A stretch of 64,000 nucleotides of DNA. Origin: Escherichia coli. GTDB lineage: Bacteria > Pseudomonadota > Gammaproteobacteria > Enterobacterales > Enterobacteriaceae. Below the pieces are notes generated by a model. That model made no database searches and was not told the origin of the DNA. It saw nothing but the letters and a program-made list of their open reading frames with translations. Shown in pieces: positions 2,810-63,887 of the stretch. The translations under genes were made by a program, and so were the position numbers. The stretch lies in NCBI RefSeq assembly GCF_009931435.1, contig NZ_CP043414.1; one strand, 5' to 3'. The number at the start of each line of letters is the position of its first letter. Position 1 is the stretch's first letter.

Positions 2810-4458
2810 TTGGGCCGATACTGAATCAGCACCAGACGCTCCTGACGATCGATGGCATCTGCGGGCGGAATGGCGAGACTGTTGATATCTTCATCGCGGT
2901 CAACCGAAAGCACGAGTGTAATAACCCCCTCCTGACGATGTTGATTAAGCCAGTTTGCGAACTCATCACCGCTGACAAATCTCCCTTTCGCATCCGGATA
3001 ATTTAGGCCGTATTTCAATTCCCCTGTCTGGCGATACATGATGATGTCATCACGTCTCAGGCTCCATGCCAGACCAGCAGCAACGCCGACGCTATCGGTA
3101 AGAATATAGCGGCTTGGCTGCAGTGATTCTTGTGTCGTCTCGACAAAAAATTGCGGATGTTTTCCTTCCATGACTCTGTCAGGAATTGAAAATCCTACCA
3201 GCAACGCCAGCCCAAGCGGGCAAAGTGCGGCAAAAGGCCAGTTTTTTTCGACGTTTGTTAAGGTATACCAGCCGAAAAATGCCCATAGCGAAAAAATCGA
3301 CCATGCACAGAAGACTTTATAGCTCTCGAAGGTTTGCCACACCGGCGTGCTCATAGGTCCCCAGGGGGAGACCACAAACGTAGCAATAATGCCAGTGACG
3401 CCAAAAGCGATGTTAATCCAGCCATTAATCCGCAACGCCAGAGGATTATTTTTTGCTGCCAGCAAAGCGTAATGCGCCATCAGCATTGCCAGAGGTGCAA
3501 AGCAGGAAAGAATATAGGTGGGCAATTTGCCTTTGGCAACGGAGAAAAACAGCAGCGGCATTACCGCCCAGCTCAATAAATAGACGGTTGCGGAATGCTT
3601 GCGGTTTTTCCAGCCTGTGTACAGTGCTCCGGGGAGTAATCCCAGCCACGGCAGGCTACCGGCAATGATGACCGGCAAGTAGTACCAGAACGGAGCTCTA
3701 TGCTGGGCATCATCCAGTGCAAAGCGTTGAATATGCTCAACCCAGAAAAAATAGTGCCAGAAGTCAGGCTCCCGCTGCGCTATCGCCAGTCCCCAGGGGA
3801 GAACCGTCAGTACGCAACTGATAACCGCCAGCCAGCCGTAAATAAAGAGATCTTTCCAGCGTTTTTGCGTTGCAACCCATGGCAGCACGCTTAATACCGG
3901 CACGGCAAGGGCGAGAAAACCTTTGGTCATCACCCCCATGCCGCAGGTGATTCCCAGCAGTAAAAATCCCGCGCTTTTGCCTTTCCACGTCTGTGCCTGC
4001 ATTGCCAGCCAGAAGCTGCACATTCCCGCCACCAGCCAGAATGCAATAAACGGATCGAGCACGGCATAAGTGCCAATGGCATAGACAATAAACAGTGAGA
4101 GATAAATCACTGCGGCGAGTAGAGCCAGACGTTTATCGCGCCATAAGCGCAGGGTAAACCAGGTCACCAGCGCGGCAGTTAACAGGGTCGCAAAGATAAC
4201 GCCTGCCCGCACACCAAAGTTATTTGCGCCAAATAGCCATTGCCCAATACTGTTAATCCAGTATCCGGCAATGGGTTTTTCGAAATAACGTAGCCCTAAC
4301 ATATGGGGCACAATCCAGTCGCCGGATGCCAGCATTTCCCGACTGATTTCCGCATAACGCGTTTCATCTGGTTGCCAGAGCAGACGCGTGCTGATCGGTA
4401 ACAGGTAATAGCAGGCAATAAACGCGAAGAGGCCGATAAGGTAACGTACCGATTTCAT
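2806..4458 (-). CDS. arnT: undecaprenyl-phosphate-alpha-L-Ara4N transferase (550 aa)
   Basis: 550-aa polytopic membrane ORF ([13 protein letters not shown]...); position in the arn operon. Confidence 0.95.
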
Positions 4459-16519: not shown

Positions 16520-17323
16520 ATGAACGCATTATTAACCAATCCCTTTAAAGAACGTTTACGCAAGGGCGAAGTGCAAATTGGTCTGTGGTTAAGCTCGACT
16601 ACTTCTTATATGGCAGAAATTGCCGCCACCTCCGGTTATGACTGGTTGCTGATTGACGGGGAGCACGCGCCAAACACCATTCAGGATCTTTATCACCAGC
16701 TACAGGCGGTAGCGCCCTATGCCAGCCAACCCGTGATCCGTCCGGTGGAAGCCAGTAAGTCGCTGATTAAACAAGTCCTGGATATTGGCGCGCAAACTCT
16801 ACTGATCCCGATGGTCGATACTGCCGATCAGGCACGTCAGGTGGTGTCTGCCACGCGCTATCCTCCCTACGGTGAGCGTGGTGTCGGGGCCAGTGTGGCA
16901 CGGGCTGCGCGCTGGGGACGCATTGAGAATTACATGGCGCAAGTCAACGATTCGCTTTGTCTGTTGGTGCAGGTGGAAAGTAAAACAGCACTGGATAACC
17001 TGGACGAAATCCTCGACGTCGAAGGGATTGACGGCGTGTTTATTGGACCTGCGGATCTTTCTGCCTCGTTGGGCTACCCGGATAACGCCGGGCACCCGGA
17101 AGTGCAGCGAATTATTGAAACCAGTATTCGGCGGATCCGTGCTGCGGGTAAAGCGGCTGGTTTTCTGGCTGTGGCTCCTGATATGGCGCAGCAATGCCTG
17201 GCATGGGGAGCGAACTTTGTCGCTGTTGGCGTTGACACGATGCTCTACAGCGATGCCCTGGATCAACGACTGGCGATGTTTAAATCAGGCAAAAATGAGC
17301 CACGCATAAAAGGTAGTTATTGA
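16520..17323 (+). CDS. rhmA: 2-keto-3-deoxy-L-rhamnonate aldolase (267 aa)
   Basis: Start at MNALLTNPF with RBS AAGGA; HpcH/HpaI aldolase family. Confidence 0.9.
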
Positions 17324-17330
17324 TATCAAA

Positions 17331-17366
17331 GGCCCACGGGGAATTGCATGTGGGCCTGTGTTTATT
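17331..17366. terminator. Bidirectional intrinsic terminator between convergent rhmA and rpnB
   Basis: GGCCCAC-N12-GTGGGCC perfect stem followed by TGTGTTTATT; sits in the 41-nt gap between the two stop codons. Confidence 0.6.
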
Positions 17367-18267
17367 AGTGGTTATTGGCTGCAAGATCGGCTTCGCTTAG
17401 CTGGATGGCTGCGAGCACCTGGTCACGATCAATGCCCTGTTCCAGCATGCGCAAGGCAATTTTAATGGCTTGTTCATGCATGCCTTCCTGCCAGCCAATT
17501 TGATGCCCTTCCTGCCGTAGCCGTTCAGCAATAGTCATCAATCTCTCCTTTTGTAGTGGTGAACGTTCGGCAATCTCCTCAATAAAACGGGTGAAACGGG
17601 AGGTATCGCCGCATTGCAGCAGATAATTAAACAGCGTTTGTAGCTGGCTGTCATTAGTGAAGCCTCTAACCAAAAGCGTGGTGATCCTGTCGACCATACC
17701 GATTAAATCGCGGTCGCGAATATGCTTTTGAATCAGTTCCAGCAGAGCTATACGCCGATGTTGCATGATCTCATCGTCAGGCACGATGGTGATATCCACC
17801 AACGGAAAAGCTTCGGTGTACAACTGCCGGGCAAGTTGCGGATCATCAAACTCATCCAGCCAGTTAAGTGAGTATGGGTAGGGCGAGGTTTCGCCGTGAT
17901 AAAACAGCAACGGCACCACCAGAGGGACTCTGTCATAGCCTTTGTCCAGGTGACGCTGCATGGCGGCGGTGGCATAGCGCATTAGCCGAAAAGCCATATT
18001 CTTTTCTGCGGAACTTTGATGTTCAATCACGCAGTAGATATAGCCGTCACCATCGCTGGTTTCCACCGACCACAAAACATCCGAGTAGTAAGCGCGTAAA
18101 CTTTTTTCAATAAAGCTGGTGGGTTCCAGGCGTAAGGTTTGCAGGTTGCAAAGTTTACGCAGTGGCTCCGGTAGATGTATTTCGAGAAAATCCCGCGCGG
18201 TTTCGGGCGAGAACATAAAGGTTTTAAACACCGCATCATGCGGGGAGGAGGTTGTTGATTCGGTCAT
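17365..18267 (-). CDS. rpnB: Rpn-family recombination-promoting nuclease, PD-(D/E)XK / transposase_31-like (300 aa)
   Basis: 300-aa ORF ([19 protein letters not shown]...) at the position of yfaD between glpC and rhmA; equating yfaD with rpnB is from memory. Confidence 0.8.
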
Positions 18268-18414
18268 GGTTGTCCGTCACCTGATATTTATGATGACGCG
18301 ACATTACGGGGATCTCGAAACAATGACATCTGCCAGTTTCTGCCTTTGCGAGACGTTTTCAGAAGAATTTTCAAAGCGATGCAACGCATACATTGAGCGA
18401 GGAATCGCGCCCGC

Positions 18415-18449
18415 AAAAATGCCCGATAAGCAATGCGCTTACCGGGCAT
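18415..18449 (-). terminator. Intrinsic terminator downstream of glpC
   Basis: On the minus strand: ATGCCCGGTAAGCGCATTGCTTATCGGGCAT followed by TTTTT. Confidence 0.55.
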
Positions 18450-18460
18450 CACAAGGAAGA

Positions 18461-22525
<4,065 letters not shown>

Positions 22526-35600: not shown

Positions 35601-36389
35601 TTACGTGTTATCGGCGGAGATTATCATTACACGGCGGCAGGGCAGTTGGCCCAGCATGAAGACACTTCTACGGTACAGCTTAGCGGCAACTTGTTAAGCG
35701 GATACTGGGGCGATGATGGCCAGTGGATGCTAGGGGCCGTGGGCGGCTACAGCGATAACCAGGGTGACAGTCGATCAAACATGACCGGAACTCGCGCTGA
35801 TAACCAGAACTACGGTTATGCCGTTGGGCTGACCTCAAGCTGGTTTCAGCACCGTAGCCAAAAACAGGGGGCCTGGCTGGATAGCTGGCTGCAATACGCG
35901 TGGTTTAACAATGATGTTTCCGAACATGAAGATGGCGTGGATCATTACCACTCATCGGGGATTATCGCCTCGCTGGAAGCGGGGTATCAGTGGTTACCGG
36001 GGCGTGGTGTGGTGATTGAACCACAGGTGCAGGTGATTTATCAGGGTGTGCAGCAGGATGATTTTACCGCTGCTAACCATGCGCGGGTATCGCAATCGCA
36101 GGGCGATGATCTTCAGACGCGGTTGGGGATACACAGCGAATGGCGTACCGCTGTGCATATCACGCCAACCCTGGATCTGAATTATTATCACGATCCCCAT
36201 TCGGCGGGGATTGAAGAAGATGGCAGCGCTATCAGTGACGATGCGGTGAAGCAACGGGGTGAAATAAAAGTGGGGATAACAGGCAATATAAGTCAGCGAG
36301 TTTCCCTGCGTGGCAGCGTGGTGTGGCAGAAAGGAGACGATGGTTTTGTCCAAACGGCTGGGTTTCTATCGATGAGGGTGAAATGGTAA
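32625..36389 (+). CDS. yfaL: AIDA-I-type autotransporter adhesin (about 1250 aa)
   Basis: Signal-peptide-like N-terminus, long beta-helical passenger with repeated GGAIY motifs, proline-rich linker, and a C-terminal beta-barrel translocator ending in aromatic residues. The true start may be the ATG at 32631 (MRIIFL). Confidence 0.85.
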   Translation: MNMRIIFLRKEYLSLLPSMIASLFSVNSVAEVLDSCQGYDIKASCQASRQSLSGITQDWSIANGQWVIFSGMANNASGGAVFLQQGAEFSLSPENETGMTLFANNTVSGEYNNGGAIFAKENSTLNLTDVIFSGNVAGGYGGAIYSSGTNDTGAVDLRVTNTMFINNIANDGKGGAIYTINNDVYLSDDVFNNNQAYTSTSYSDGDGGAIDVTDNNSDITHPSGFTIINNTAFTNNTAEGYGGAIYTNSVTAPYLIDISVDDSYSQNGGVLIDENNCAAGYGDGPSTAAGGFMYLGLSEVTFDIADGKTLVIGNTENDGAVDSIAGTGLITKTGSGDLVLNADNNDFTGEMQIENGEVTLGRSNSLMNVGDNHCQDDPQDCYGLTIGSIDKYQNQAELNVGSTQQTFVHALTGFQNGTLNIDAGGNVTVNQGSFAGTIEGAGQLTIAQNGSYVLAGAQSMALTGDIVVDDGAVLTLEGDAADLAALQDEPQSIVLNGGVLDLSDFSTWQSGTSYNDGLEVSGSSGTVIGSQDVVDLAGGNDMHIGGDGKDGVYVVVDAGDGQVSLANDNQYLGTTQIASGTLVVSDNSQLGDTHYNRQVIFTDNQQESVMEITANVDTRSTTVEHGRDIEMRADGEVAVDAGVDTQWGALMADSSGQHQDEGSTLTKTGAGTLELTASGTTQSAVRVEEGTLKGDVADIFPYASSLWIGDGATFETGADQDIQSIDATSSGTIDISDGTVLRLTSQDTSAALDASLFNGDGTLVNATDGVTLTGELNTNLETDSLTYLSDVTVNGDLTNMSGTVSLQNGVAGDTLTVNGDYTGGGTLFLDSELNGDDSVSDQLVLNGNTSGNTTVVVNPITGTGEPTSTGIKVVDFTADPTQFQNNALFSLAGSGYVNMGAYDYTLVEDNNDWYLRSQEVTPTPPPDPDPTPDPDPTPDPDPTPDPAPAPTPAYQPVLNAKVGGYLNNLRAANQAFVMERRDHAGGDGQTLNLRVIGGDYHYTAAGQLAQHEDTSTVQLSGNLLSGYWGDDGQWMLGAVGGYSDNQGDSRSNMTGTRADNQNYGYAVGLTSSWFQHRSQKQGAWLDSWLQYAWFNNDVSEHEDGVDHYHSSGIIASLEAGYQWLPGRGVVIEPQVQVIYQGVQQDDFTAANHARVSQSQGDDLQTRLGIHSEWRTAVHITPTLDLNYYHDPHSAGIEEDGSAISDDAVKQRGEIKVGITGNISQRVSLRGSVVWQKGDDGFVQTAGFLSMRVKW

Positions 36390-36397
36390 TCGCTGTC

Positions 36398-36515
36398 TGA
36401 CCGGCACTATTGCCGGATGCGGCGTAAACGCCTTATCTGGCCTACGGGAGCATTTGTAGGCCTGATAAGACGCGGCAAGCGTCGCATCAGGCATTGGCAC
36501 GGTTGCCGGATGAAT
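36398..36515. repeat. BIME / REP cluster between yfaL and ubiG
   Basis: TGCCGGATGCGGCGTAAACGCCTTATCTGGCCTAC and GTAGGCCTGATAAGACGCGGCAAGCGTCGCATCAGGCA motifs. Confidence 0.7.
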
Positions 36516-36528
36516 CCAAACAACAACC

Positions 36529-37251
36529 TCACTTATTCTGCGTGTGCAGCATATAGTTCACATCTACGCCGGGACCGAGCTTAAAAGTGTTAGTAATCGG
36601 GTTGTAATGCAGTCCGATCATATGCCGTTCTTTTAGACTGGTCTGATCCACCCAGCCCAGCAATTCTGCCGGTTTAATAAACTTCTTCACATCATGCGTA
36701 CCTTTAGGCACCATGCGTAAAATATATTCCGCACCAACCACCGCCATCAGCCACGACTTGCCGTTGCGGTTAAGCGTCGAGAAAAAGACATCGCCGCCCG
36801 GTTTTACCAGTTGCGCACAGGCTCTGACCACTGACTGCGGATCGGGAACGTGCTCCAGCATCTCCATGCAGGTCACCACATCATACTGCCCGGCATGTTT
36901 TGCGGCGTGCTCTTCCACGGTTTCCTGCACGTAATTCACCTGAATGCCACTTTCCAGTGCGTGCAGCTTTGCCACCTGCAATGGCTCAAAGCCCATATCC
37001 AGACCGGTCACCGTCGCGCCTTCGCGCGCCATACTCTCGGCCAGAATGCCGCCGCCACAACCGACATCGAGTACCTTTTTGCCAAATAAACCGCCAGCAC
37101 GCTCGGCAATATAGCCCAGACGCAGCGGGTTAATGCGGTGCAGCGGTTTGAACTCACCTTCCAGATCCCACCAGCGGGAGGCGACGGCTTCAAATTTAGC
37201 GATCTCTTCGTGGTCTACGTTAGGGGTTACCGGCGATTTTTCGGCATTCAT
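36529..37251 (-). CDS. ubiG: ubiquinone biosynthesis O-methyltransferase (240 aa)
   Basis: Start at [20 protein letters not shown]; SAM-binding motif ([13 protein letters not shown]). Confidence 0.95.
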
Positions 37252-37397
37252 TGGCACTTCTACTCCGTAATTGGCAAGACAAACGAGTATATCAGGCATT
37301 GGATGTGAATAAAGCGTATAGGTTTACCTCAATCAGCGCGGCTGTGTTATAATTTGCGACCTTTGAATCCGGGATACAGTAGAGGGATAGCGGTTAG

Positions 37398-40025
37398 ATG
37401 AGCGACCTTGCGAGAGAAATTACACCGGTCAACATTGAGGAAGAGCTGAAGAGCTCCTATCTGGATTATGCGATGTCGGTCATTGTTGGCCGTGCGCTGC
37501 CGGATGTCCGAGATGGCCTGAAGCCGGTACACCGTCGCGTACTTTACGCCATGAACGTACTAGGCAATGACTGGAACAAAGCCTATAAAAAATCTGCCCG
37601 TGTCGTTGGTGACGTAATCGGTAAATACCATCCCCATGGTGACTCGGCGGTTTATGACACGATCGTCCGTATGGCGCAGCCATTCTCGCTGCGTTACATG
37701 CTGGTAGACGGTCAGGGTAACTTCGGTTCCATCGACGGCGACTCTGCGGCGGCAATGCGTTATACGGAAATCCGTCTGGCGAAAATTGCCCATGAACTGA
37801 TGGCCGATCTCGAAAAAGAGACGGTCGATTTCGTTGATAACTATGACGGCACGGAAAAAATTCCGGACGTCATGCCGACCAAAATTCCTAACCTGCTGGT
37901 GAACGGTTCTTCCGGTATCGCCGTAGGTATGGCAACCAACATCCCGCCACACAACCTGACGGAAGTCATCAACGGTTGTCTGGCGTATATCGATGATGAA
38001 GACATCAGCATTGAAGGGCTGATGGAACACATCCCGGGGCCGGACTTCCCGACGGCGGCAATCATTAACGGTCGTCGCGGTATCGAAGAAGCTTACCGTA
38101 CCGGTCGCGGCAAGGTATATATCCGCGCCCGTGCGGAAGTGGAAGTTGACGCCAAAACCGGGCGTGAAACCATTATCGTCCACGAAATTCCGTATCAGGT
38201 GAACAAAGCGCGCCTGATCGAAAAAATTGCGGAACTGGTAAAAGAAAAACGCGTGGAAGGCATCAGCGCGCTGCGTGACGAATCTGACAAAGACGGTATG
38301 CGCATCGTGATTGAAGTCAAACGCGATGCGGTCGGTGAAGTGGTGCTCAACAACCTCTACTCCCAGACCCAGTTGCAGGTTTCTTTCGGTATTAACATGG
38401 TGGCATTGCACCATGGTCAGCCGAAGATCATGAACCTGAAAGACATCATCGCTGCGTTTGTTCGTCACCGCCGTGAAGTGGTGACCCGTCGTACTATTTT
38501 CGAGCTGCGTAAAGCTCGCGACCGTGCTCATATCCTTGAAGCATTAGCCGTGGCGCTGGCAAACATCGATCCGATTATCGAACTGATCCGTCATGCGCCG
38601 ACGCCTGCAGAAGCGAAAACGGCGCTGGTTGCTAATCCGTGGCAGCTGGGCAACGTTGCCGCGATGCTCGAACGTGCGGGCGATGATGCTGCGCGTCCGG
38701 AATGGCTGGAGCCAGAGTTCGGCGTGCGTGACGGTCTGTACTACCTGACCGAACAGCAAGCTCAGGCGATTCTGGATCTGCGTCTGCAGAAACTGACCGG
38801 CCTTGAACACGAAAAACTGCTCGATGAATACAAAGAGCTGCTGGATCAGATCGCGGAACTGTTGCGTATTCTTGGTAGCGCCGATCGTCTGATGGAAGTG
38901 ATCCGTGAAGAGCTGGAGCTGGTTCGTGAACAGTTCGGTGACAAACGTCGTACTGAAATCACCGCCAACAGCGCAGACATCAACCTGGAAGATTTGATTA
39001 CTCAGGAAGATGTGGTAGTGACGCTCTCTCACCAGGGCTACGTGAAGTACCAGCCGCTTTCTGAATACGAAGCGCAGCGTCGTGGCGGGAAAGGTAAATC
39101 TGCCGCACGTATTAAAGAAGAAGACTTTATCGACCGACTGCTGGTGGCGAACACCCACGACCATATTCTGTGCTTCTCCAGCCGTGGTCGCGTCTATTCG
39201 ATGAAAGTTTACCAGTTGCCGGAAGCCACTCGTGGTGCGCGTGGTCGTCCGATCGTCAACCTGCTGCCGCTGGAACAGGACGAACGTATCACCGCGATCT
39301 TGCCGGTGACTGAGTTTGAAGAAGGTGTGAAAGTCTTCATGGCGACCGCTAACGGGACCGTGAAGAAAACTGTCCTCACCGAGTTCAATCGTCTTCGTAC
39401 CGCCGGTAAAGTGGCGATCAAACTGGTTGACGGCGATGAGCTGATCGGCGTTGACCTGACCAGCGGTGAAGACGAAGTAATGCTGTTCTCCGCCGAAGGT
39501 AAAGTGGTGCGCTTTAAAGAGTCTTCTGTCCGTGCGATGGGCTGCAACACCACCGGTGTTCGCGGTATTCGCTTAGGTGAAGGCGATAAAGTCGTCTCTC
39601 TGATCGTGCCTCGTGGCGATGGTGCAATCCTCACCGCAACGCAAAATGGTTACGGTAAACGTACTGCGGTAGCGGAATACCCGACTAAGTCGCGTGCGAC
39701 GAAAGGGGTTATCTCCATCAAGGTTACCGAACGTAACGGTTTAGTGGTTGGCGCGGTGCAGGTAGATGACTGCGACCAGATCATGATGATCACCGATGCC
39801 GGTACGCTGGTACGTACTCGCGTTTCTGAAATCAGCATCGTGGGCCGTAACACCCAGGGCGTGATCCTTATCCGTACTGCGGAAGATGAAAACGTGGTGG
39901 GTCTGCAACGTGTTGCTGAACCGGTTGACGAGGAAGATCTGGATACCATCGACGGCAGTGCTGCGGAAGGGGACGATGAAATCGCTCCGGAAGTGGACGT
40001 TGACGACGAGCCAGAAGAAGAATAA
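37398..40025 (+). CDS. gyrA: DNA gyrase subunit A (875 aa)
   Basis: 875-aa ORF with the active-site Tyr region and an acidic C-terminal tail; the quinolone-resistance region reads [11 protein letters not shown] (Ser83, Asp87). Confidence 0.97.
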
Positions 40026-59789: not shown

Positions 59790-59982
<193 letters not shown>

Positions 59983-63638: not shown

Positions 63639-63731
63639 AAAAAAAACCGGATGCGAGGCATCCGGTTGAAATAGGGGTAAACAGACATTCAGAAATGAAT
63701 GACGGTAATAAATAAAGTTAATGATGATAGC
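63639..63731 (-). ncRNA. micF: MicF antisense sRNA (93 nt)
   Basis: The reverse complement reads GCTATCATCATTAACTTTATTTATTACCGTCATTCATTTCTGAATGTCTGTTTACCCC...CCGGATGCCTCGCATCCGG followed by eight T: the MicF sequence with its terminator hairpin. Confidence 0.85.
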
Positions 63732-63887
63732 GGGAGATATTCTAGTTGCGAGTGAAGGTTTTGTTTTGACATTCAGTGCTGTCAAATACTTAAGAATAAG
63801 TTATTGATTTTAACCTTGAATTATTATTGCTTGATGTTAGGTGCTTATTTCGCCATTCCGCAATAATCTTAAAAAGTTCCCTTGTAT

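Follow-up and report, generated by a model that had tools for sequence, protein, structure and literature searches.

An internal translation start in Escherichia coli rpnE and the predicted intragenic protein RpnE-S

The window analysed here, a 64,000-nucleotide stretch of an Escherichia coli chromosome, carries a rpnE (yfaD) gene with an internal ribosome binding site and start codon that are real and strongly conserved. We consider it highly probable that this locus is the RpnE-L/RpnE-S gene-within-a-gene of the Escherichia/Shigella-type chromosome, in which one ORF would give rise to two proteins. Initiation at position 18267 would yield RpnE-L (300 aa), consisting of a PD-(D/E)XK YhgA-like nuclease domain followed by a 57-residue three-helix C-terminal domain. 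Separate initiation at AUG244, recruited by an AAGGAG sequence 6 nt upstream, would yield RpnE-S, the C-terminal domain alone. This analysis establishes the anatomy and orthology of rpnE, the conservation of its internal start, the fold of the small domain and the variation in repeats. The features of the locus are as follows.

17365-18267, minus strand: full-length rpnE (yfaD) ORF, RpnE-L, 300 aa plus stop (ORF list, 95.3% identity to b2244, synteny, NF007418, TIGR01784).
17641-18246, minus strand: N-terminal PD-(D/E)XK nuclease domain, Pfam PF04754 (Transposase_31/YhgA-like), residues 8-209, E = 7.7e-88.
17545-17549, minus strand: internal Shine-Dalgarno (SD) sequence AGGAG, lying in the long-frame codons Lys240-Glu241-Arg242 (direct reading).
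17536-17538, minus strand: internal in-frame ATG, Met244 of RpnE-L and Met1 of RpnE-S (direct reading, ORF list).
17365-17538, minus strand: rpnE-S ORF, 57 aa with a predicted mass of ~6.5 kDa, putative intragenic antitoxin, sharing frame and stop with RpnE-L.
17485-17508, minus strand: part of helix 1 made up of four-residue repeats (GHQI GWQE; residues 11-18 of S), where alleles differ in length.
17327-17360, no strand assigned: GC-rich hairpin (GGCCCAC...GTGGGCC) directly after the rpnE stop, between the convergent rpnE and yfaU genes, RNAfold -15.8 kcal/mol.

An earlier note on this DNA had described an AGGAGA sequence followed by an in-frame ATG at 17536-17538 that opens a 57-aa product, and direct reading of the minus strand bore this out. 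The text around the internal start is CTACAAAAGGAGAGATTGATGACT. AGGAG lies at 17549-17545 and its extension to AGGAGA reaches 17544, giving a spacer to the ATG of 6 nt from AGGAG and 5 nt from AGGAGA. The distance between the two starts (18267-17538) is 729 nt, or 243 x 3, which makes the internal ATG codon 244 of the 300-aa ORF. Both rpnE and rpnE-S end at the TAA at 17367-17365, after 57 codons from the internal ATG.

Counting AGGAG-N4-8-ATG by itself showed no enrichment in the window, with 7 sites compared to 6.8 expected. As the motif count alone is uninformative, chance was judged by the duplex-energy rank and by the position of each site relative to ORFs. The SD/anti-SD duplex at the internal rpnE start has a predicted energy of -8.7 kcal/mol and ranks 12 among the 2139 ATGs on both strands of the window. 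Five of the other six pattern sites open ORFs of 216-429 codons and are probable gene starts, two of these ORFs corresponding in length to K-12 glpC and glpB; the sixth opens a 23-codon ORF. The rpnE site is thus the only one in the whole window that lies deep within a long ORF, and the remark in the earlier note that so strong an internal ribosome binding site is unusual is a fair one for this DNA, though not new. Predicted RNA accessibility of the SD-ATG segment was not distinctive (0.41 compared to a mean of 0.46), and the surrounding 60 nt were moderately unstructured (89th percentile).

The gene itself had been called rpnB (yfcI, b2305). Synteny, identity and the NCBIfam equivalog instead identify it as rpnE (yfaD, b2244). 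The window protein is 95.3% identical to K-12 RpnE, compared to 66.2% for RpnB and 61.3% for RpnA, and the gene sits between glpC and yfaU as K-12 b2244 does, whereas the K-12 rpnB locus reads yfcH-rpnB-hisP. The protein scored 702 bits against the NCBIfam equivalog NF007418 (cut-off 583), under which RefSeq annotates the window gene as rpnE, and 174 bits against the Rpn family model TIGR01784 (cut-off 52); it failed the RpnA equivalog model. Of 5426 complete E. coli genomes, 5420 contain a match, and the highest identity to any of the 5426 is 98.5-98.8%. K-12 RpnE-L/RpnE-S shares with the window gene the locus, the SD and start (AAAAGGAGAGATT[A/G]ATG) and Met244, and the first 36 residues of the S protein are identical. 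The upstream context and the first ~60 nt of the S ORF equal those of K-12 rpnE apart from three synonymous changes, one of which is the base preceding the ATG (TTG compared to TTA). RpnB-L/RpnB-S belongs to the same family and has its internal start at the same position, and antitoxin activity has been demonstrated for RpnB-S, but its identity to the window protein is only 66%.

Conservation of the internal start was assessed in 80 sequences, the window gene and 79 loci from relatives with 48-95% identity in Escherichia, Citrobacter, Salmonella, Klebsiella, Serratia, Pantoea, Pectobacterium, Vibrio and Paludibacterium. An ATG was found at the homologous column or one codon before it in 79 of 79 readable loci, and the alignment places the internal rpnE ATG at RpnA Met244. 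The mean anti-SD duplex energy at the internal start was -8.4 kcal/mol compared to -1.1 kcal/mol for a control set of 804 in-frame ATGs elsewhere in these genes, and 95% of the internal sites reached -5 kcal/mol or below compared to 6.7% of the controls (Mann-Whitney p = 6e-46). This conservation across relatives is the decisive evidence against chance, as judged from sequence comparison.

A more specific objection is that AGGAG is merely a by-product of Lys-Glu codons, that the Met is structural, and that the site yields no separate protein and at most an SD-like elongation pause. AAG-GAG does encode the conserved Lys240-Glu241, the motif is as frequent in the window as expected by chance, and the per-locus synonymous-shuffle p-values are modest (median 0.14). 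However, the SD persists where relatives encode EE, GE, GD, QE, RE or GG rather than KE at residues 240-241, and 27 of 34 non-redundant relatives use GAG for Glu241, compared to 40% GAG family-wide (p = 3e-6). The stand-alone ypaA gene opens with an identical SD and ATG, and a product of this gene has been detected. Moreover, Ribo-RET and Onc112 peaks and a tagged RpnE-S have been obtained in K-12, where the start context is that of the window bar the synonymous changes noted above, and mutation of the ribosome binding site and the ATG at the homologous codon abolishes RpnA-S. We therefore regard a codon by-product as a most improbable explanation. Sliding synonymous entropy across 43 non-redundant relatives detected no extended constrained stretch upstream of the start, only codon 241 standing out; locally enhanced synonymous conservation was reported with a different method by Meydan et al. 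(2019).

The internal rpnE start has been described before. Meydan et al. (2019) listed yfaD among the genes with a conserved in-frame internal start in Ribo-RET data, and the principle of RpnL/RpnS intragenic toxin-antitoxin pairs, together with a crystal structure, was published in 2023. Zhong et al. (PNAS 2023; PMC10400941) found that each of the five rpn genes of K-12 has an internal start and yields a tagged small product, RpnE-S among them: Onc112 and retapamulin peaks were present, SPA-tagged RpnE-S and YpaA were detected, and dRNA-seq placed an internal transcription start site in every K-12 rpn gene. In the same study M244L and ribosome binding site mutations abolished RpnA-S. Loss of the small product on SD or ATG mutation has also been shown for the C. 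difficile homologue. Starts at the methionine of MTIA are consistent with the residue numbers given by Zhong et al., namely M244 in RpnA and the stop codons placed at E25 of RpnA-S and D29 of RpnB-S. For RpnA, RpnB, RpnC and RpnP2, but not for RpnE, the long protein was shown to be toxic and its short partner to neutralise it (PMC10400941), and phage defence was demonstrated for the plasmid-borne RpnP2 only, in assays at pH 8.5 and low temperature. The account of small intragenic Rpn proteins in the earlier note agrees with this work. Its main point, a C-terminal RpnS start within a PD-(D/E)XK gene, stands, while the gene name does not; its further proposal that the small protein antagonises a toxic nuclease and acts in phage defence would apply to RpnE by homology.

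The 57-aa product resembles RpnA-S in sequence and in predicted structure. A phmmer search matched RpnE-S to 7TH0 RpnA-S (E = 2.9e-4, residues 1-55 to 1-47), the alignment beginning at Met1. The AlphaFold2 model of RpnE-S is a three-helix bundle (mean pLDDT 76.6), and its top Foldseek match in the PDB was 7th0 (probability 1.00, TM 0.73); other Foldseek matches, to helix-turn-helix (HTH) domains, were weak. A sequence match of RpnE-S to the designed helical-repeat protein 7UDK was judged to be a compositional resemblance. Pfam searches with RpnE-S and with a 40-member S alignment returned only weak, unrelated helical families and no DUF4351 (PF14261).

RpnA-L/RpnA-S (yhgA, 7TH0) shares with RpnE its architecture, the start at codon 244 and the AAGGAG upstream, and RpnA-S and RpnE-S have in common an identical opening of 12 residues, the three-helix bundle and the long first helix. 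The two are nevertheless paralogues, 61% identical overall and ~43% in the S portion, with two extra four-residue repeats in RpnE-S; it is for RpnA, not RpnE, that toxicity, an antitoxin effect, a complex and inhibition of the nuclease in vitro have been demonstrated. RpnE-S and RpnE-L would share the long first helix, which is the dimer interface in RpnA-S, so RpnE-S is predicted to associate with the RpnE-L C-terminal domain and, as an intragenic antitoxin, to keep the nuclease inactive. By homology to RpnA, RpnB, RpnC and RpnP2, RpnE-S may bind RpnE-L and act as its antitoxin, with a possible role in phage defence.

Length differences among alleles in the repeat zone of helix 1 are multiples of 4 aa, and the indels begin at S residue 11-19. 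Internal S proteins of 48, 56, 57, 65 or 76 aa occur in E. coli and of 65, 69 or 77 aa in other Escherichia, and the S length is 1 mod 4 in 62 of 79 relatives. These observations agree with the published description of four-residue repeat variation between strains, 8-20 residues after Met1 (PMC10400941). The number of repeats in helix 1 would set partner recognition.

Several features of the locus bear on whether the nuclease domain is functional. The residues tested in RpnA (D11, D63, E82, Q84, R94 and D165 of PDDE) are all kept in the window protein, according to an alignment with K-12 RpnA, RpnB and RpnE, and these positions are conserved in 75-80 of the 80 aligned sequences. Comparison of codons 1-243 with other Escherichia alleles gave dN/dS ratios of 0-0.05, and from these sequence comparisons we conclude that the RpnE-L nuclease domain is under strong purifying selection. 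The window allele also keeps the consensus Leu107 and Pro155, whereas K-12 RpnE has Gln107 and Leu155. Among the window sequence and its relatives positions 107 and 155 are conserved in 80 of 80 and 78 of 80 sequences, respectively, and L107Q and P155L are private to the K-12 lineage. K-12 RpnE was inactive in every toxicity/viability, SOS and recombination assay (PMC5350276), and its RefSeq name includes 'inactive'.

RpnE-S could be made without the pair being a working toxin-antitoxin or defence system, either because RpnE-L is non-toxic, through domestication or decay, or because RpnE-S serves a different purpose, for example regulation of other Rpn paralogues, cross-talk with them, or DNA binding by its HTH-like helices 2-3. 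The absence of toxicity, SOS induction and recombination stimulation with K-12 RpnE fits this explanation, as does its 'inactive' RefSeq name. So does the genomic context: the neighbours of rpnE are housekeeping genes (glpABC and the rhamnonate operon) rather than a defence island, and PADLOC 2.0 contains no family matching RpnE-L or RpnE-S. In E. whittamii the long frame is interrupted by an in-frame stop around codon 187, with the SD and the S ORF left intact, and a DNA-binding function would accord with the 'Rpn/YhgA-type helix-turn-helix domain' name that PGAP gives to ypaA-like ORFs and with the weak Foldseek HTH matches. On the other hand, all residues that RpnA activity requires are retained under the low N-terminal dN/dS values given above, the assayed K-12 allele has two lineage-private substitutions from which the window allele is free, and the assayed constructs unknowingly co-expressed RpnE-S, as Zhong et al. 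note for earlier Rpn work. General cross-talk is further disfavoured by the paralogue-specific action of RpnS proteins for A versus B. Taken together, we consider a non-working pair unlikely.

The RpnE-L/RpnE-S arrangement remains the preferred reading. A further, tentative proposal, which we hold to be less likely than not, is that RpnE works as a live toxin-antitoxin pair in the majority of Escherichia, this strain among them, and that its 'inactive' reputation is an artefact of the K-12 laboratory lineage. It draws on the consensus Leu107 and Pro155, the full set of catalytic residues and the purifying selection on the nuclease domain.

The window allele also differs from K-12 in its S modules. 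It has a single S module and no downstream copy of ypaA, and is ~195 bases shorter than K-12 in this region. The ypaA gene, a free-standing duplicate of S, is present in K-12 and in ~58% of complete E. coli genomes, and opens with the same AAAAGGAGAGATTAATG as the internal rpnE site, which shows that the SD and S ORF act as a self-contained unit. K-12 YpaA (RpnE-Ss) has 61 aa, including one extra repeat. Stand-alone RpnS-like genes (ypaA/rpnSs; DUF4351, PF14261 in some species) encode the same small protein with its own SD, whereas the window copy is embedded in the nuclease ORF. The S tail of the window allele (22 residues) is of the ypaA/outgroup type, whereas the internal tail in K-12 is FEREIVLATTQLTDADIPNCH. 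The window tail is no closer to one group than to another, with 11-15 differences from single-copy alleles, 12-13 from ypaA copies and 14 from outgroups. As the outgroups are all single-copy, an ancestral-type single-module arrangement is tentatively favoured over secondary collapse of rpnE-S and ypaA, and the window allele may represent either.

RpnE-S would probably be translated from a short transcript starting within the gene, as judged from the published K-12 dRNA-seq data. A simple consensus sigma-70 scan of 17250-18500 identified no promoter inside rpnE. An ATGACA-N17-TTTAAT sequence at 17654-17626, noticed by eye, lacks the key -11 A and is not claimed as an internal promoter. As the scan found no promoter and synonymous constraint was not extended, the case for an internal promoter is that of the published work. 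The hairpin that follows the rpnE stop is probably a terminator, though its T-run is poor. Its arms are conserved in Escherichia outgroups, and a consensus terminator scan of 17250-18500 did not call it.

The discovery value of these results is small and their main use lies in annotation. The ORF should be labelled rpnE rather than rpnB and given a nested 57-aa CDS (rpnE-S) at 17538-17365, and antitoxin and phage-defence labels for rpnE should be marked as inferred. A modest lead follows from the finding that K-12 RpnE, the only RpnE allele ever assayed, carries two private substitutions at near-invariant positions. Because the assayed allele is atypical, natural alleles such as that of the window are the right material for testing RpnE nuclease toxicity. 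If RpnE is a live pair, the ypaA duplicate, whose repeat number is not that of the internal S, would serve as a spare antitoxin or a mismatched one, and the single-module form found in the window would be the original arrangement.

The long open reading frame of rpnE and the internal translation signals that it contains are the following:

18267..17365, minus strand: rpnE long ORF, 300 aa (from the ORF list)
17549-17545, minus strand: internal Shine-Dalgarno (SD) sequence AGGAG within CTACAAAAGGAGAGATTGATGACT (direct reading)
17538-17536, minus strand: internal ATG start codon, six bases after AGGAG

Counted from the first base of the long frame, the internal ATG lies 729 nt on, as codon 244, and is followed by 56 codons and TAA. 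Direct reading of the sequence bore out the coordinates, frame, spacing and 57-aa product length that the earlier note had given for this start. AGGAG-N4-8-ATG occurs seven times in the window compared to 6.8 expected from shuffles; as this is no excess, the motif count by itself proves nothing. The 15 nt upstream of the internal ATG are predicted to pair with the 3' end of 16S rRNA at -8.7 kcal/mol, which ranks 12th among 2139 ATGs on both strands. Five of the six other motif matches head long ORFs (216-429 codons), two of which equal K-12 glpC and glpB in length, and are probable gene starts; the sixth opens a 23-codon ORF. Only the rpnE site lies 243 codons inside a long ORF.

Conservation was assessed with 80 loci encoding relatives of the window protein (48-95% identity) from Escherichia, Citrobacter, Salmonella, Klebsiella, Serratia, Pantoea, Pectobacterium, Erwinia, Vibrio and Paludibacterium. 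All 79 loci with a readable frame contained an ATG at the homologous column or, in three Pseudocitrobacter loci, one codon earlier, followed by T-[ILVM]-A. Over 80 sequences (the window and 79 loci), the mean pairing energy between the anti-SD sequence and the 15 nt before this ATG was -8.4 kcal/mol, compared to -1.1 kcal/mol for 804 other in-frame ATGs of the same genes; values of -5 kcal/mol or lower were reached at 95% of the sites and at 6.7% of these control ATGs (Mann-Whitney p = 6e-46). The purine-rich element is kept while the encoded residues change (AAGGAG, Lys-Glu; GAGGAGG, Glu-Glu; GGAGA, Gly-Glu/Asp; CAGGAGG, Gln-Glu; GGGAGGGGAG, Gly-Gly-Glu), which suggests that the RNA sequence itself, and not the protein alone, is under selection at the SD element. 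Where Glu241 is kept, its codon is GAG in 27 of 34 non-redundant sequences, versus a GAG share of 40% over these genes as a whole (binomial p = 3e-6, with lineages that are not fully independent). Extended synonymous constraint upstream of the internal start was not seen in the alignment of relatives, and predicted RNA accessibility at the SD-ATG was not distinctive. We conclude that the site stands above chance by its duplex-energy rank, its position deep within an ORF and its conservation across relatives, which upholds the internal start as originally noticed.

The gene had been called rpnB. Residues 8-209 of the long protein constitute a PF04754 (Transposase_31/YhgA-like) domain (Pfam, E = 7.7e-88). 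We assign the gene to rpnE, not rpnB, because it lies between glpC upstream and the convergent yfaU (2-keto-3-deoxy-L-rhamnonate aldolase) downstream, exactly where K-12 MG1655 carries b2244, rpnE (formerly yfaD; the name follows Kingston et al.); because the window protein is 95.3% identical to K-12 RpnE, versus 66.2% to RpnB and 61.3% to RpnA; because it scores 702 bits against the NCBIfam equivalog NF007418 (cut-off 583), on which RefSeq bases the rpnE annotation of this gene in matching E. coli genomes, and fails the RpnA equivalog (429 bits versus 583); and because K-12 rpnB is found elsewhere, between yfcH and hisP.

Residue 1 of the 57-aa product (RpnE-S) aligns with residue 1 of crystallised RpnA-S (7TH0), and the first 11 residues are identical. 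An AlphaFold2 model from a 40-member alignment (mean pLDDT 76.6) contained helices at residues 3-33, 38-45 and 49-53, and its best PDB fold match was 7th0 (probability 1.00, TM 0.73 on target, 43% identity), a dimeric three-helix bundle (PMC10400941). Compared to RpnA-S, helix 1 has eight extra residues, i.e. two 4-residue units. The internal S form is 48, 56, 57, 65 or 76 aa long in E. coli, 65, 69 or 77 aa in other Escherichia species or clades, and 42-85 aa among the 79 relatives, 62 of which have a length of 1 mod 4. All of these differences fall in the G-x-x-x repeat zone, reproducing the repeat hypervariability published for Rpn proteins; altered repeat number breaks the match between the long (L) and S forms of RpnC (PMC10400941). 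RpnE-S (17368-17538) also matched the designed helical-repeat protein 7UDK over repeated stretches (E = 6.5e-7); homology was rejected, the match being judged a compositional resemblance of idealised helices.

The local allele differs from that of K-12, in which the rpnE tail ...FEREIVLATTQLTDADIPNCH is followed 12 nt on by a free-standing copy of S:

K-12 locus (L001) 3300-3502: ypaA, an S copy of 61 aa that has its own AAAAGGAGAGATTAATG

The window is ~195 nt shorter (alignment gap at 17481/17480) and has a single module, the 5' part of which equals the K-12 internal S and has no KLEG unit, with a ypaA-type tail. The K-12-type junction (internal tail, SD and ypaA start) was found at >=80% coverage in 3134 of 5426 complete E. 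coli genomes (~58%). The ypaA copy is homologous to the window from about three bases before AGGAG onward, indicating that the duplicated unit is the SD plus the S ORF. Because all five of the nearest orthologues that are not of K-12 type (two Escherichia clade genomes, E. albertii, E. whittamii and a divergent 'E. coli') have a single module and an ...ANNH-type tail, the one-module arrangement appears to be of the ancestral type, with the duplication a derived state within E. coli. For the window allele, nucleotide distances do not separate a history without duplication from one of duplication followed by collapse; deletion as well as fusion forms are mentioned by Zhong et al. (PMC10400941). 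Annotation treats ypaA as a partial pseudogene or hypothetical protein (PGAP) or a pseudogene (K-12 RefSeq), yet its product has been detected.

The residues at which mutation inactivates RpnA (D11, D63, E82 and Q84) are all present in the window protein, as are R94 and D165, and comparison of codons 1-243 with five other Escherichia alleles gave dN/dS values of 0 to 0.05. Only three positions in these codons differ from K-12 RpnE, two of which are the K-12 substitutions L107Q and P155L:

Codon 107: window 17947-17949; K-12 locus 2723-2725
Codon 155: window 17803-17805; K-12 locus 2867-2869

Leu and Pro are kept in 80/80 and 78/80 aligned sequences, respectively; the window has both, as does every E. 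coli allele examined outside K-12, the substitutions being private to the K-12 lineage. Exactly these two codons separate K-12 from the nearest non-K-12 sequence class; the sampled genomes that match the K-12 sequence exactly are laboratory derivatives of K-12, and at most 355 of 5420 genomes have >=99% identity over that stretch. L107Q and P155L are one possible reason for the 'inactive' behaviour of K-12 RpnE in the 2017 assays (PMC5350276); a second, unnoticed co-expression of S from those constructs, was pointed out by Zhong et al. (PMC10400941). In E. whittamii Sa2BVA5 (L005 1468-2439) the long frame is interrupted at about codon 187 (KHIR*RDL), with the internal SD, ATG and 77-aa S ORF intact; hence the pair can decay asymmetrically, and this S could be an antitoxin orphaned by loss of the toxin. 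At three Citrobacter loci (L037, L061 and L074) the frame with S is open for only ~170-187 codons ahead of the internal start; S is intact in these genomes, in which the long form is possibly truncated or disrupted.

A GC-rich hairpin (GGCCCAC/GTGGGCC, 17327-17360, -15.8 kcal/mol) between the convergent rpnE and yfaU is kept in Escherichia outgroups and is probably their shared terminator, although it has no good T-run and a consensus terminator scan misses it. Best identities to the 5426 genomes were 98.8% (36000-40000, gyrA-ubiG-yfaL) and 98.5% (17300-18350, rpnE), indicating that this Escherichia/Shigella-type lineage is not closely represented among them. The window also contains the MicF sRNA (63639-63732, minus strand, 116.8 bits) and a naRNA4/CssrE element matching on both strands (59902-59978), both at the Rfam gathering threshold, and no tRNA genes.

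Retapamulin ribosome profiling in E. coli placed yfaD among the genes with an in-frame internal start, for which a preserved start site and locally raised synonymous conservation were reported (Meydan et al. 2019, bioRxiv 10.1101/520783). Zhong et al. (PNAS 2023, PMC10400941) subsequently reported for all five K-12 rpn genes an internal start with Onc112/retapamulin signal, an internal transcription start and a chromosomally SPA-tagged small product; RpnE-S and YpaA (RpnE-Ss), which is encoded downstream, were among the products detected. K240R+E241D+M244L abolished RpnA-S. RpnA-L, RpnB-L and RpnP2-L inhibited growth, and the long forms of RpnA, RpnB and RpnC induced SOS; cognate S blocked these effects, with paralogue specificity for A versus B. 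RpnA-S formed a complex with RpnA-L and inhibited DNA cleavage, and plasmid RpnP2 protected against T-even phages (PMC10400941). In our alignment the MTIA methionine is Met244 in RpnA, RpnB and RpnE, which fits the published residue numbers; counted from this methionine, the engineered stops RpnA-S E25 and RpnB-S D29 (PMC10400941) fall on Glu and Asp.

We infer translation of S in this strain from its start context, which has only three synonymous changes relative to K-12. The basis for an internal promoter is the published internal transcription start (PMC10400941); a consensus promoter scan of 17250-18500 found none internally. By analogy with its paralogues, RpnE-S would act as an antitoxin and the pair in phage defence; the rpnE locus does not lie in a defence island, and no PADLOC 2.0 model matches L or S. 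The earlier interpretation, a small product antagonising a toxic nuclease in phage defence, was right as to kind, wrong as to paralogue and overstated as to function. We conclude that the feature is not new: it is the already described RpnL/RpnS gene-within-a-gene, real and well supported.
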